In this document: positions 56,163 to 61,509 of the stretch, piece after piece | Position numbering within the stretch: the stretch's first letter is position 1 | Layout: each line of letters starts with the position of its first letter | IMG/VR virus record: IMGVR_UViG_3300020473_000015 | From: a virus | DNA: 64,000 nt | Reading direction: 5' to 3' (one strand) | Translations under genes and position numbers: made by a program | Notes under the pieces: generated by a model | Databases searched by the model: none | The model's input: the letters and a program-made list of their open reading frames with translations, nothing else | What the model was told of the DNA's origin: nothing

Positions 56163-57458
56163 ATGAATTTTATAAAAAAAGAATTTTGGAAAGCCATCCC
56201 AATATGGAAAGATGTTGATTATAATACTTTTGTTAGTACGAAGTGGCAGGAAAAAAATGCAGTATCAAGCTTTAAGAAATTAATTAAAATAGTTTCTGAT
56301 GTCGCTGACCCTTCTTTTCTTAAAGACGCACAGGAAGGATTTAATAATGCACCGATGGCAGTTCGCATTTCTCCATATCTTCTATCTTTGATGAACTGGG
56401 AAGATCCCATCAATTGTCCTATTCGACGACAATTTTTGCCCATGGCGTCACAACTTCTACCAGACCATCCTATGTTAAAGTTTGATAGTCTGGGAGAACA
56501 ACAAGACGCACCAATAACTGGTTTGACTCACCGTTATCCTGATAAAGTTTTATTTTTAGCATTAGATACATGTCCGGTTTATTGCCGATTCTGTACACGA
56601 AGTTATGCTGTAGGTAGCAAAACAGCTACTACCGAAAAAGTTTCTATAACAGTTTCTCAGAATAGATGGGAAGAAGTGTTTCAATATCTTAAAGATAACA
56701 AAGAGATAGAAGACGTTGTTATATCTGGTGGTGATAGTTACCGACTCAAAGCAGAACAAATAACAAAAATTGGAGAAACGTTACTTTCTATTGACCACAT
56801 TAGGAGATTTAGATTTGCGACTAAAGGCTTATCTGTAATGCCTATGAAGGTTTTTGATGATATTAGGTGGACTGATGCTATTACAAAAATATCTGATAAG
56901 GCTAGAAAACAGCACAAAGAAGTTTGTATTCATACGCACTTCAACCACACCAGTGAATTAACCTCAATCACTAAAGAAGCAATGGATTTACTATATGAAA
57001 GAGGAATCAAAGTCCGCAATCAAACTGTTTTTCAAAATAAAGTTAATGACACCCCCGAACAAATGATTAAGCTTGTTAAAAAAATGAGTTATATAAATGT
57101 CCAGCCGTATTATGTGTATGTGCACGATTTGGTTAAAGGCACTGAAGATATGAGAACCTCAGTGCAAACTGCAATGAAGGTGGAAAAGCACACACGCGGA
57201 GTGACAGCAGGGTTTAATACTCCGCTGTTTGTGGTCGATGCACCAGGAGGCGGTGGTAAAAGAGATGTACATTCATGTGAATGGTATGATTCTTATACTG
57301 GTATCAGTGTGTGGGAAGCTCCCAGCGTTAAGCCTGATCAGCAGTTTTTATATTTTGATCCTCTCCACTCTTTAGAGCCAGAAATGCAGCAGATTTGGAA
57401 AAATGAGGGACTGCGCAAGAGAATGATTGAGTCTGCTCTGGAGTATAAATATTTTTAA
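56163..57458 (+). CDS. kamA: KamA-family radical SAM aminomutase (lysine 2,3-aminomutase-like)
   Basis: THRYPDKVLF, TCPVYCRFCTR (CxxxCxxC), VVISGGD, THFNH, NQTV, QPYYVYVHD, VDAPGGGGK (PLP lysine). Confidence 0.93.
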   Translation: MNFIKKEFWKAIPIWKDVDYNTFVSTKWQEKNAVSSFKKLIKIVSDVADPSFLKDAQEGFNNAPMAVRISPYLLSLMNWEDPINCPIRRQFLPMASQLLPDHPMLKFDSLGEQQDAPITGLTHRYPDKVLFLALDTCPVYCRFCTRSYAVGSKTATTEKVSITVSQNRWEEVFQYLKDNKEIEDVVISGGDSYRLKAEQITKIGETLLSIDHIRRFRFATKGLSVMPMKVFDDIRWTDAITKISDKARKQHKEVCIHTHFNHTSELTSITKEAMDLLYERGIKVRNQTVFQNKVNDTPEQMIKLVKKMSYINVQPYYVYVHDLVKGTEDMRTSVQTAMKVEKHTRGVTAGFNTPLFVVDAPGGGGKRDVHSCEWYDSYTGISVWEAPSVKPDQQFLYFDPLHSLEPEMQQIWKNEGLRKRMIESALEYKYF

Positions 57459-57466
57459 AAAACTCC

Positions 57467-57494
57467 TTGACAAATACATTAATTGTAATATATT
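57467..57494 (+). promoter_or_regulatory. Sigma70-like promoter TTGACA-N16-TATATT for hsp20
   Basis: Perfect -35 at 57467-57472 and -10 at 57489-57494; predicted +1 near 57501, where the leader hairpin begins. Confidence 0.6.
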
Positions 57495-57500
57495 TACAAC

Positions 57501-57563
57501 AAGTTGAATATTGCCTTTGGGATGTTCAACTTTTACTTGCTTATATAAGGAGAAAATATTATG
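57501..57563 (+). ncRNA. ROSE-like RNA thermometer in the hsp20 5' UTR (two hairpins)
   Basis: Hairpin 1: AAGUUGAAUAU..AUGUUCAACUU (57501-57532). Hairpin 2: UUUUACUUGCUU-AUAU-AAGGAGAAAA (57531-57556), in which UUGCU pairs with the SD AGGA leaving a bulged G. Confidence 0.75.
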
Positions 57564-57998
57564 ACAAATACAGCAATTACTATTCATCGCCCCAGCCTTT
57601 TGGGGAGAAACGTCTTCGATGACGTTTTTGATAACTTTTTTACAGACTTTCCAAGATACTTAAAACAATCAACTCAAGGATATCCTGTTGTGGATATCTA
57701 TAGAGAAGACAACGGAGATACAGTAATGGAATTTGCCTTGGCTGGTTTTACTAAAAATGATCTTTCTATAGATGTACAGCCAGATAAACGATCCATTACG
57801 GTTGCTGCAGATTCTGGTATTGAAGGGGGTGAAGAATCTAGCCGAAGAATCGCACGCCGAAGTTTTAAGAAGACGTATGTCAACTATGATGACAACTTGG
57901 ATCTCACTAAAATAAGTGCGAAATTTGAAAATGGTTTACTGTGTATTACGGTACCGCAAAGACCGGAAGCAAAACCAGTTTCAATTAAAATTAGTTAA
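57561..57998 (+). CDS. hsp20: Small heat shock protein (Hsp20/alpha-crystallin)
   Basis: YPVVDI, MEFALAGF, GIARRSF-like RIARRSFKKTY, AKFENGLLCITVP. Confidence 0.95.
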   Translation: MTNTAITIHRPSLLGRNVFDDVFDNFFTDFPRYLKQSTQGYPVVDIYREDNGDTVMEFALAGFTKNDLSIDVQPDKRSITVAADSGIEGGEESSRRIARRSFKKTYVNYDDNLDLTKISAKFENGLLCITVPQRPEAKPVSIKIS

Positions 57999-58005
57999 TT
58001 TTGTT

Positions 58006-58034
58006 TGGCGGGTAGATTTTCTACCCGCCATTGT
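58006..58034 (+). terminator. Intrinsic terminator-like hairpin after hsp20
   Basis: Perfect 11-bp stem TGGCGGGTAGA-TTT-TCTACCCGCCA (58006-58030). The following U-tract (TTGT) is weak. Confidence 0.7.
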
Positions 58035-58044
58035 AAAAAAACCC

Positions 58045-58073
58045 TTGACAATTAAAATTATACCTGTTATTAT
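58045..58073 (+). promoter_or_regulatory. Strong sigma70-like promoter TTGACA-N17-TATTAT with extended TG
   Basis: -35 at 58045-58050, TG at 58065-58066, -10 at 58068-58073, immediately after the terminator. Confidence 0.75.
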
Positions 58074-58082
58074 CTTACCTGT

Positions 58083-58355
58083 ATGTTTACCAAACCTTTA
58101 ATGAAAATAATCTATAATCCTAAACCTCCTTTTAAAAAAGGAGATGTGATTGATTGTTATGATGAAATGTTGGGAAGAACAATTACTGGATACATTATTA
58201 ATGTTGTGCGTGCTAGCGATGGCATATATGACTTAGTGATTCGCTGGAACGATTTATTTGTTGCAGTGGAGAAATGTAGCGTACCAGAGGCCAAAAAAAG
58301 AATCAAAATGAAACTATGGAGATTTAGGCCGACCTTAGACTATAAAGCGAGATAA
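58083..58355 (+). CDS. Hypothetical protein (possible SH3/KOW-like barrel)
   Basis: FKKGDVI..TGYIINV pattern; lies directly after the promoter. Confidence 0.6.
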   Translation: MFTKPLMKIIYNPKPPFKKGDVIDCYDEMLGRTITGYIINVVRASDGIYDLVIRWNDLFVAVEKCSVPEAKKRIKMKLWRFRPTLDYKAR

Positions 58356-58356
58356 A

Positions 58357-61300
58357 ATGAAGTTTGCACACATTGCCGATACACACATAAAAAATTTAAA
58401 ATATCACTATGAATACCGAGAGGTGTTTAAAAAGCTTTACGAAAAACTTCGTGAAGAGAAAGTAGATTATATTATTCATTGCGGAGACATAGCGCACACA
58501 AAGACGCAGCTATCACCTGAATACTTTGATCTCTGTTCCAGCTTTTTGTCGTCATTGGCGTCAATAGCACCTACTTATGTAATTCTCGGGAACCATGATG
58601 GTAATCTGAAGAACAGCAGTCGGCAAGATGCCATTACACCAGTAGCGGAAGCTTTAGACGATCCAAATCTGTTTTTACTTAAAGACAGTGGGGAGGTAAA
58701 TTTAAATGGAAACTTTACACTTAACGTTCTTAGTGTTTTTGATAGGGATAATTGGATTAGCCCTTCCGATAATAGAAAAATCAATATTGCTCTTTATCAC
58801 GGCGCTATTAGTAATAGTAGGACTGATTTGGGTTGGATTATGGAGCACGGCGAGGATAATTTATCAATATTTGAGGAATTTGATTATGCCTTCTTGGGCG
58901 ACATTCACAAAACAAATCAAATATTAGATCATAACGGTAAAATAAGATATGCTGGTTCAACCGTACAACAAAATCACGGCGAAACAAATGATAAAGGATT
59001 TTTAGTTTGGGAAATTGAAGACAAAGATAACTATACTTGTCGCCATGTGGAGTTAAAAAATCCAAAACCCTTTATAACAATTGAGTTAACGCCAAAAGGC
59101 AGAATGCCCAATAAATTAAAAATTCCAGTTGGTGCACGAGTGCGCCTAGTATCCAATAATAACTTGCCACTTAGTACAATGAAAAAGGCTGTGGAAGTTG
59201 CGAAACATAGATTTAAGCCTGAAAGCATCACATTCTTAAACAGAGCGGCAGGAGAAAGAGGCAACGTTGACGAATTTACAGATGGGTTAGAAAACGATAA
59301 TCTGAGAGATGTTGCAGTACAAGAAGAGTTGATAAGAGAATATTTAAAAGACTTTCAGGCTGACGAAGAATTAATAGAACGTGTCTTAAAGTTGAACTCC
59401 AAGTACAATACGGCTGTTGAAGAGAATGAGGAGGTTAATAGAAATGTTAATTGGAAACTCGATAAGATAGAATGGGACAATCTATTTAATTATGGAGAGG
59501 GGAATTCTGTTGATTTTCATAAAACTACTGGAATGGTTGGTGTTTTTGGAAAGAATTTTTCTGGTAAGTCTAGTATTATCGACAGTATGCTTTTTACTAT
59601 GTTTAATTCTACTAGCAAAAATGAACGAAAAAACCTCAACATCATCAATCAAAACAAAGATTATGGACAAGGGAAACTCCAAATTTCAGTCGGAAATAAA
59701 CAATACACCATTGAGCGAAGAGCAGACAAATATACGAAAAAGCTAAAAGGCGAGGAAACTCTAGAGGCTAAAACAGATTTAAATTTTGAATGCTATGATG
59801 CTGCGACAGGTGAAACCACTAGCTTAAATGGAACCACAAGAAACGAAACAGACAAAATCATAAGAAAACATTTTGGCACAATGGAAGATTTCTTAATGAC
59901 TTCAATGTCTTCTCAGCTTGGCGCCCTACAATTTATTAGTGAGGGTTCGACAAAGAGAAAGGAAATCCTTGCAAAATTTCTTGACTTGGAAATGTTTGAT
60001 AAGAAATTCAAGTTGGCAAAAGAAGATGTAACTGATCTAAGAGGGGCACTTAAAAGACTTGAGGGAAAAGAATTTGATGATGATATCTTTAATGCAGAAA
60101 AAGAAATTATATTAAATGAAGCTGCAACTCGTGAACATTCTGAAAATTGCGAGAATATTAAGAAAGAGCTTTCAGAGATACAATTTAATGTTGATGAAAT
60201 ACAAAAGTCTATCGATTCCATTCCAGCAGAGCTAATTGATATCAATGCTGTTATTAATATGACTAGTGAGAAAGAAAAACAGTCTGCAGATTTTATTGTT
60301 GATATCATGAACTTTCAAGAAAATCTTGTAGAAAAAGAAAATCTTGTCAAGAAAATTGATAGTTTTATTAGTGGATTTAATACAGAAGACTTATATGAAA
60401 AGCAAAGTAAAGTTGCTGAAAAATTACTAACACTTAGGGGGCTTTCTGATGAGTTGGCTTTCTTGGAAAAAGAAAAAGAAACCAAAGAAAAAAGAATTGG
60501 TTTATTAAAAGAAGTTCCATGCGGAAGTCAATTTCCTAATTGTAAGTTTATTTGTGATGCACATAACGCTTCTGATGGAATGGTAGATCTCTTATCAAAA
60601 GTAGAATCATTAAATAAGCAGTCTGGCAATGTTAATGCAGAGATTGAGGAGTTAAACCCAGAACAGATTGAAGATTACCTTAAAAAATATAAAGAAGTAT
60701 TAAGTAAGAAGGAAACTACTGAACTTGACATATCTAAAATAAAAGTTGAGATTGAGCGAGGCGAAGTTAATTTAAAAAGCCTAGAGAATGAAATTAAAGA
60801 GTTAGAAGAGAAAAAACAAATTTATTATGAGAACAAAGATGTTATTGAAAATAAAGGATCATTCATTAAACAACTGGCAAAAGAAAAGAAATCTTACTTA
60901 GCAAAAGAAAAAGAGTTGAAAAAATGCCAAGATGCAATAATGGAATTTTATAGAGAGCACGGATCTCTAGAGCAGAAGCTAAACTCCCTCAAAGAACAAA
61001 AAGAGGAGCTACAAAGCCTCAGAGAAGATTATTCAGCTTATGATTTGTTTATGCACTGTATGCATGCAAATGGAATTTCATATGATATTATTAAAAAGAA
61101 GTTGCCAATAATCAACAATGAGGTTGCAAAAGTTATTGCTAACGTTGTTGACTTTGAGGTTTTCTTTGAGAATGATGGAAAGCACATGAAGATCTTTATT
61201 AAACACCCCAAACACGAACCTCGACCTATTGAAATGGGTAGCGGTGCAGAAAAAACAATTGCTGCAATGGCAATTCGTTTAGCGCTGCTGTCTGTTTCAA

Positions 61301-61509
61301 GCCTTCCAAAAAGTGACATATTTATCTTAGATGAACCAGGAACTGCTCTGGATGCAGACAATATGGATGGTTTTATTTCTATTTTAGAACTAATTAAAAC
61401 ATACTTCAAAACTGTTATTTTGATTTCTCATCTTGACAGTCTGAAGGATTGTGTAGACCAACAGATTGTCATTGACAAGAAAGAGGGGTTTGCACATATA
61501 ACAGTGTAA
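58357..61509 (+). CDS. Fused SbcD-SbcC (Mre11-Rad50; T4 gp47-gp46-like) nuclease-ATPase
   Basis: Phosphoesterase motifs ADTH, HCGD, GNHD, YHG, GDIH; Walker A GKNFSGKS; long coiled coil; signature GSGAEK; Walker B ILDEP; H-loop ISH. Confidence 0.93.
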   Translation: MKFAHIADTHIKNLKYHYEYREVFKKLYEKLREEKVDYIIHCGDIAHTKTQLSPEYFDLCSSFLSSLASIAPTYVILGNHDGNLKNSSRQDAITPVAEALDDPNLFLLKDSGEVNLNGNFTLNVLSVFDRDNWISPSDNRKINIALYHGAISNSRTDLGWIMEHGEDNLSIFEEFDYAFLGDIHKTNQILDHNGKIRYAGSTVQQNHGETNDKGFLVWEIEDKDNYTCRHVELKNPKPFITIELTPKGRMPNKLKIPVGARVRLVSNNNLPLSTMKKAVEVAKHRFKPESITFLNRAAGERGNVDEFTDGLENDNLRDVAVQEELIREYLKDFQADEELIERVLKLNSKYNTAVEENEEVNRNVNWKLDKIEWDNLFNYGEGNSVDFHKTTGMVGVFGKNFSGKSSIIDSMLFTMFNSTSKNERKNLNIINQNKDYGQGKLQISVGNKQYTIERRADKYTKKLKGEETLEAKTDLNFECYDAATGETTSLNGTTRNETDKIIRKHFGTMEDFLMTSMSSQLGALQFISEGSTKRKEILAKFLDLEMFDKKFKLAKEDVTDLRGALKRLEGKEFDDDIFNAEKEIILNEAATREHSENCENIKKELSEIQFNVDEIQKSIDSIPAELIDINAVINMTSEKEKQSADFIVDIMNFQENLVEKENLVKKIDSFISGFNTEDLYEKQSKVAEKLLTLRGLSDELAFLEKEKETKEKRIGLLKEVPCGSQFPNCKFICDAHNASDGMVDLLSKVESLNKQSGNVNAEIEELNPEQIEDYLKKYKEVLSKKETTELDISKIKVEIERGEVNLKSLENEIKELEEKKQIYYENKDVIENKGSFIKQLAKEKKSYLAKEKELKKCQDAIMEFYREHGSLEQKLNSLKEQKEELQSLREDYSAYDLFMHCMHANGISYDIIKKKLPIINNEVAKVIANVVDFEVFFENDGKHMKIFIKHPKHEPRPIEMGSGAEKTIAAMAIRLALLSVSSLPKSDIFILDEPGTALDADNMDGFISILELIKTYFKTVILISHLDSLKDCVDQQIVIDKKEGFAHITV

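Follow-up and report, generated by a model that had tools for sequence, protein, structure and literature searches.

A conserved ROSE-like leader upstream of hsp20 genes in marine phages, a probable translational RNA thermometer

The leader of the phage hsp20 gene described here is, by analogy with known elements, probably a two-hairpin ROSE-like translational RNA thermometer that belongs to a phage subfamily, a reading to which we give a probability of roughly 70%. In rhizobial ROSE elements, which stand before small heat-shock protein (sHsp) genes, U(U/C)GCU pairs with the Shine-Dalgarno sequence (SD) around a bulged G. The ROSE-like class as a whole comprises sHsp 5'UTRs with 2–4 hairpins, of which the 3' hairpin has U(U/C)GCU imperfectly paired to the SD around a bulged G (PMC3669281; PMC11182007). 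Such thermometers are already well known in alpha- and gamma-proteobacteria. The phage RNA thermometers on record number three, none of them ROSE-like (PMC11182007), and no paper combining cyanophage, hsp20 and thermometer was found in the literature searched; this fits the preliminary description of this DNA, which took such control to be uncharacterized in phages. The gene lies in a 64-kb stretch of DNA from an uncultured marine phage (64,000 nt, hereafter the window), where the following features were placed:

57467–57472, + strand: -35 hexamer TTGACA, its CTTGAC box kept at the same place in relatives (alignment A1)
57489–57494, + strand: -10 hexamer TATATT, a 16-nt spacer away from the -35 hexamer
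57501–57532, + strand: hairpin 1, with an outer stem of 12 bp and an apical module
57536–57552, + strand: hairpin 2 (ROSE module), with anti-SD UUGCU (57537–57541), loop AUAU (57543–57546) and SD AAGGAG (57547–57552)
57561–57998, + strand: hsp20, encoding a 145-aa small heat-shock protein with an alpha-crystallin domain (Pfam PF00011, phrog_432)
58006–58030, + strand: strong 3' hairpin after the hsp20 stop codon (11 bp, -20.2 kcal/mol, z -5.5)

The 102-nt gap between the preceding KamA-like radical-SAM gene, which ends at 57458, and the hsp20 ORF holds a promoter and a 60-nt leader. The promoter (57467–57494) is near-consensus and sigma-70-type: it agrees with the consensus at 11 of 12 positions in a promoter scan, which bears out the TTGACA-N16-TATATT element of the preliminary description. 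Sites of the form TTGACA-N15-18-TATWWT occur twice in the window, upstream of hsp20 and at 58045 before the next gene, and in 80 relatives a TATAAT-like box ends 5–9 nt 5' of the foot of hairpin 1. Judging from the position of the promoter, transcription of hsp20 is predicted to start at about 57500–57502; an early-looking promoter of the host sigma-70 type would then yield an hsp20 transcript from about 57501. With this predicted start, the leader (57501–57560) lies between the promoter and the Pfam HSP20 ORF, as the 5'UTR of an sHsp gene should, and its two hairpins (the leader of phage S-PM2 has three) are within the range of the ROSE-like class.

A T4-type late-promoter motif, TATAAATA, is also present at 57444–57451, within an inverted repeat GGAGT...ACTCC (57440–57466) at the end of the KamA-like gene. 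It stands 16 nt before the -35 box, and a transcript begun there would still carry the whole leader. A T4-type late promoter was rejected, as the 11 occurrences of TATAAATA in the window against 9.3 expected are at the level of chance. In two relatives (L059 and L005), the loop of hairpin 2 is UAUAAAUAA, which contains TATAAATA; a late transcript begun in this loop would lose the anti-SD and so escape the thermometer.

All folds were computed at 37 C. Hairpin 1 (A57501-U57532) has a predicted energy of -12.5 kcal/mol (z -4.9), a value as good being reached in 1 of 200 shuffles, which agrees with the stable 11–12-bp hairpin from about 57501 noted in the preliminary description. Its apical module consists of U57511-A57522, U57512.G57521, a bulged G57513, C57514-G57520, C57515-G57519 and a UUU loop, which gives hairpin 1 a ROSE-like apex and the leader a second bulged-G module. 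In hairpin 2, the pairs able to form are C57536-G57552, U57537-A57551, U57538.G57550, C57540-G57549, U57541-A57548 and U57542-A57547, with G57539 bulged; UUGCU (57537–57541) can thereby pair with AGGA (57548–57551), the pairing by which the class is recognized. By nearest-neighbour energies, the SD region of the window amounts to about -0.3 to 0 kcal/mol at 37 C, in a shifted register and no better than shuffles. The hairpin 2 pairs listed in the preliminary description, to which U57542-A57547 is an addition, can form, in a register other than that of the 37 C fold of the window, and the UUUU/AAAA helix proposed to close them is formed in no fold, U57531-57532 belonging to hairpin 1. Hairpin 1 and the U-run after it were also considered as a transcription attenuator, which was rejected because the U-run is not kept in relatives. 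The motif TTGCT-N3-9-AGGAG occurs once in the window against 0.93 expected, which is chance level, and its significance therefore rests on its position and on its conservation in relatives.

That conservation is extensive. U(U/C)GCU-N3-10-AGGAG stands directly before the hsp20 start at all 93 loci with upstream DNA (77 with TTGCT, 16 with TCGCT), at protein identities down to 56%; of the 94 loci fetched, only L012, for which upstream DNA is missing, is without the motif. When 80 leaders are aligned with MAFFT, C-U-(U/C)-G-C-U never changes, and this holds for the bulged G too (C, U, G, C and U at 57536-57537 and 57539-57541); G57513 and C57514 of hairpin 1 are nearly invariant, while the leaders differ from one another, both in sequence and in length, in the spacer, the loops and the outer stem of hairpin 1. 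Nine leaders that were aligned by MAFFT without internal gaps in either hairpin have two-sided changes in hairpin 1 at 9 of its 14 pairs, with 96% of cells paired, a score that was reached in none of 500 shuffles.

A covariance model built from these nine leaders (R1) recovered the leader in every locus and found exactly one site in the window. In the model-fitted alignment (77 distinct rows, from the 80 leaders and two spurious matches), 93.6% of cells are paired, compared with 68.8% when shuffled and 50–66% when partners are slid, and two-sided changes occur at 15 of 20 pairs; this alignment favours pairing counts, since it is fitted to the R1 structure, a bias from which the MAFFT-only subset and the raw motif counts are free. 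Hairpin 2 has 99.6% of its cells paired in these 77 model-fitted rows. Its second pair is U.G in 60, C-G in 12 and U-A in 3 sequences, which corresponds to the U(U/C) of the ROSE consensus, and its apical pair is U-A in 67, A-U in 6 and G-C in 1, the 7 switches spanning at least two groups. The pair before the bulge of hairpin 1 likewise varies as U.G, C-G or U-A. Hairpin 2 has few two-sided changes, all of them at a single pair and in 8 sequences, and its SD strand would be conserved regardless of pairing. Covariation across phage hsp20 leaders, which the preliminary description had suggested checking, is thus found, heavily in hairpin 1 and sparsely in hairpin 2. RNAalifold predicts both hairpins with the bulged G unpaired. 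R1 matches at L019 1950-2020 and L023 1942-2017 (a terminator plus the next promoter), in P-SSM3 at 93952-94019 (inside a CDS) and in Mel-JY01 at 92863-92926 (a terminator plus the SD of a chitinase gene) were discarded as spurious.

Of 15 cultured phages checked, 13 have this leader before hsp20: S-CRM01, S-SM2, S-PM2, Syn1, P-SSM3, P-HM2, S-RIM2, S-CAM7, P-RSM6, S-SKS1 and C48C1, and the Pelagibacter phages HTVC008M and HTVC115P. It was not found in the remaining two, Vibrio phage PWH3a-P1 and Pseudomonas phage Callisto. In S-PM2, the additional hairpin is at the 5' end of the leader. When the S-PM2, P-SSM3, S-SM2 and HTVC008M leaders are folded without constraints, both bulged-G hairpins appear in the MFE and centroid structures; the G at 57539 is invariant in 80 leaders and unpaired both in RNAalifold and in the MFE folds of cultured phages. 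In each of five whole cyanophage genomes, the top R1 match is the hsp20 leader.

The leader of S-PM2 also bears on a reading at the level of DNA, in which the conserved CT(T/C)GCTTAA box would be a Pho box or part of a sigma-32 promoter. The sequence ATTCAAACTCGCTTAAATA upstream of S-PM2d130 (hsp20) has been given as a putative Pho box (PMC10976474), and CTTG is the core of sigma-32 -35 boxes (PMC3669281). However, the S-PM2d hsp20 fragment did not bind PhoB and hsp20 was unresponsive to low phosphate, published data on which the Pho box reading was rejected (PMC10976474). Moreover, the box lies downstream of the -10 hexamer, in the transcribed leader and 20 nt before the ATG, its variation obeys RNA pairing rules, and it is found in SAR11 phages as well. 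We give a DNA-level site hardly any credence. The thermometer reading, on the other hand, explains the conserved S-PM2 box that was once tentatively taken for a Pho box and failed that test (PMC10976474).

How the phage leaders relate to the described ROSE families was examined with Rfam models. No Rfam family reaches its gathering score anywhere in the window. At relaxed thresholds, ROSE_3 (RF02523) is the only thermoregulator family that matches phage leaders; it aligns to hairpin 2, with 16.8 bits in the window and 20.7–21.0 in relatives, the gathering score being 43 bits. ROSE_2 (RF01832) and ROSE (RF00435) gave no match to phage leaders at E up to 10. The scan with Rfam ROSE models proposed in the preliminary description therefore gives an alignment, to ROSE_3 and below threshold; of the "textbook" ROSE claimed there, the defining sequence features stand, in about 80 leaders and 13 cultured phages, and the word "textbook" does not, as no Rfam model reaches threshold.

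A Salmonella ibpAB locus, found in the phage collection, served as a control. Its ibpA leader, a verified thermometer, scores 95.2 bits with ROSE_2 and only 21.3 bits with ROSE_3. Because ROSE_3 gives this authentic ROSE_2 element 21.3 bits, a score of about 20 is what an authentic ROSE subfamily obtains with the model of another. In the reverse direction, the phage model R1 matches both Salmonella leaders, that of ibpB at 21.3 bits (E 6e-4) and that of ibpA at 12.1 bits, and hairpin 2 of one relative (L072, CUCGCUG-AAA-CAGGAG) is almost identical to the ibpA hairpin. The verified SD hairpin of Salmonella ibpA has -6.0 kcal/mol and a z of -0.19, no better than shuffles, which indicates that weak energy is normal for the ROSE class; values for the phage SD hairpins run from about -0.3 (window) to -3.9 kcal/mol at 37 C.

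These energies invite a simpler explanation, namely that the structure is constitutive: hairpin 1 would shield the 5' end from RNases, the weak SD hairpin would fix a modest rate of translation, and temperature would be irrelevant. Hairpin 1 is very stable and stands at the predicted 5' end, and the predicted folds leave hairpin 2 of the window practically open at 37 C, as this explanation would have it. Yet it leaves unexplained the exact ROSE anti-SD and the invariant bulged G in all leaders examined, as well as the restriction to a heat-shock gene (a single match in the window, and the top match in five phage genomes). Furthermore, verified enterobacterial ROSE hairpins are also no better than shuffles, so that weak energy is typical rather than telling. 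We consider a purely constitutive role improbable.

In the thermometer reading, hairpin 1 would fold stably and set the fold of the leader, and the anti-SD UUGCU of hairpin 2 would pair with AGGA around the bulged G and keep the 30S subunit off at low temperature. As the helix of hairpin 2 is short and rich in A-U and G.U pairs, it would melt on warming, exposing the SD and allowing Hsp20 to be translated. Both the occlusion of the SD in vivo by hairpin 2 and, by analogy with ROSE elements, the response of the leader to temperature are expected on this model. Since the sensor lies within the mRNA, the phage would raise its chaperone output without host transcription factors. According to the energy model, hairpin 2 of the window may repress little, unless at sea-water temperatures or aided by non-canonical pairs; the weak phage SD hairpins would fit lower operating temperatures, and their very weak, A-U-rich composition suggests, as far as folding predictions go, thermometers set for sea-water temperatures.

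The protein encoded downstream belongs to the Hsp20/alpha-crystallin family, its match to Pfam HSP20 (PF00011) scoring 44.3 bits (cut-off 20.8, E 2e-11), and it is assigned to phrog_432. Against the IbpA equivalog (NCBIfam NF008013), it scores 24.3 bits, far under the curated cut-off of 212; in terms of sequence, the Hsp20 of the window is a member of a phage clade and not an IbpA orthologue. The protein has >1,300 relatives in metagenomes, and a relative is encoded on 212 IMG/VR viral contigs. A search of 185,579 species genomes (one each) with two peptide patterns, and hence limited to closer relatives, returned 2 MAG contigs only, both of which have this leader and probably represent binned phage DNA. 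An arginine-rich stretch of the alpha-crystallin domain, RRIARRSFxKTYVNY, is invariant in the phage clade (alignment A2).

This stretch is relevant to another explanation, in which the leader is mainly a protein-binding operator. Free Hsp20 oligomers would bind the leader and repress translation, and translation would resume when unfolded proteins titrate Hsp20; the leader would then be an aggregation sensor, with the bulged-G modules as its binding platform. There is precedent in E. coli IbpA, which represses itself via its 5'UTR and for this needs R93 and the cationic R97/K98 in the alpha-crystallin domain (PMC10474464). The invariant phage stretch is in the same part of the domain, any match to R93 itself being conjectural. 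In addition, the bulged-G module of hairpin 1 (U/C-G-C with G-G) is near-invariant, which is more than a plain stabilizing stem needs, and the penultimate hairpin of the ROSE_2 consensus also has a bulged G. Against this, the phage protein is not an orthologue of IbpA (24 bits against the cut-off of 212), and arginine-rich beta6-beta7 regions are common in sHsps. A leader that acts mainly as an operator is possible, if somewhat doubtful, and could coexist with thermosensing.

If the two functions were combined, the two bulged-G modules would make up a dual sensor, that is, a habitat-tuned thermometer together with an operator for the phage Hsp20 oligomer. This idea is speculative, and we hold it only tentatively. 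Were it true, marine phages would have a heat and proteotoxic-stress response of their own that is independent of host transcription, and that would work after the shut-off of host transcription, and in hosts (cyanobacteria, SAR11) without known ROSE elements.

Several observations concern the gene itself and its surroundings. The preliminary description had the gene insulated by its own promoter and a downstream terminator; the promoter holds, as does a strong hairpin at 58006-58030, which is followed by AUUGUAAAAAAA in place of a U tract and is not called in a terminator scan, so that it is no canonical terminator. It is possibly a weak terminator or a stem that protects the 3' end. In L019 and similar relatives, a canonical hairpin and T-run are located 3' of hsp20. 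Directly 3' of the window hairpin is the second consensus promoter (58045-58073; TTGACA-17-TATTAT, with TG before the -10), and downstream of it a 90-aa ORF (58083-58355) with no Pfam or PHROG match. Further on, 58357-61509 encodes a single-chain SbcD-SbcC fusion, which is Mre11-Rad50-like. Full-length relatives of this fusion are limited to Microcystis phage Mel-JY01 (30.5% identity), the nearest cultured one, and the 484-kb uncultured huge phage LR756508 (28.6%); T4-like cyanophages match its SbcC-like part only.

Elsewhere, one 190-kb IMG/VR contig (L033 and L061) has two hsp20 paralogues that have diverged and lie about 170 kb from one another, both with a ROSE-like leader of their own. 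A tmRNA gene (L056 481-841, 120 bits) is found about 700 nt upstream of hsp20 in one relative, and tRNA gene arrays adjoin hsp20 in several others (L022, L032, L086, L023). The gene regA, for a translational repressor, is directly upstream of hsp20 in the cyanomyoviruses S-SM2, S-CRM01, S-PM2, P-HM2 and S-CAM7 (L095, L096, L097, L101 and L108). In L051, L067, L071, L073 and L091, the SD-to-AUG spacer is AAAAUUGUUAUG, which we take to resemble the target consensus of T4 RegA. RegA might thus put a second translational control on hsp20.

The leader also flags wrong start codons in phage hsp20 annotations. In P-HM2 (L101, 175-252), the annotated start at locus position 175 is upstream of the ROSE-like leader, and the true start is likely the ATG that follows the SD by 8 nt, at about 247. 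The 164-aa metagenomic Hsp20 forms P0001 and P0004 likewise read through the leader.

The 25 genes that make up the core of T4-like cyanophages include hsp20, the role of which has only been guessed at (Sullivan et al., PMC3037559). A conserved translational thermometer before it would tell when the phage wants the protein and would make its role experimentally accessible; because S-PM2, P-HM2, P-SSM3, Syn1 and HTVC008M carry the leader, the thermometer is testable in established phage-host systems. If the reading is right, viruses would here have their first ROSE-like thermometers, which would also be far more widespread than any other phage thermometer, and thermometers set for sea-water temperatures could tie the physiology of phage infection to ocean warming.

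Among known systems, the Pseudomonas ibpA ROSE_3 element (PMC3669281) is alike in its two-hairpin leader of about 60 nt with the SD in the 3' hairpin, in the U(U/C)GCU pairing, in the unpaired AUG and in preceding an sHsp gene. In contrast to it, the phage leader is carried by a phage and is under a sigma-70-type rather than a sigma-32 promoter, it has weaker stems with a much higher share of A-U pairs, and the downstream protein is not IbpA. Enterobacterial ibpA/ibpB (ROSE_2, RF01832) share the build of the SD hairpin, CUCGCUG-loop-CAGGAG with a bulged G, and the ROSE_2 consensus has a bulged G in its penultimate hairpin too, so a second module of this kind is not unique to phages; on the other hand, enterobacteria have the more stable SD hairpin (-6.0 kcal/mol), and one more hairpin is present at the 5' end of the ibpA leader. 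Rhizobial ROSE (RF00435) likewise stands before sHsp genes and pairs U(U/C)GCU with the SD around a bulged G (PMC11182007), whereas it is 70–120 nt long with 3–4 hairpins, and the Rfam ROSE model does not match the phage leaders. IbpA self-regulation (PMC10474464) offers a parallel, since there too an sHsp gene has a ROSE-like leader and its protein a cationic cluster within the alpha-crystallin domain, but the phage Hsp20 is only a distant relative of IbpA and its binding to RNA is hypothetical. Finally, the known phage thermometers are likewise 5'UTR structures that gate translation by temperature (PMC11182007; PMC10586365). Those of lambda cIII, SPbeta blyA (fourU) and gut Caudoviricetes sigma-70 (fourU) are, however, not ROSE-like, do not control a chaperone and occur in one or a few phages each, whereas the phage hsp20 leader, to which a thermometer role is ascribed here by analogy, is a family that extends over hundreds of marine phage genomes.
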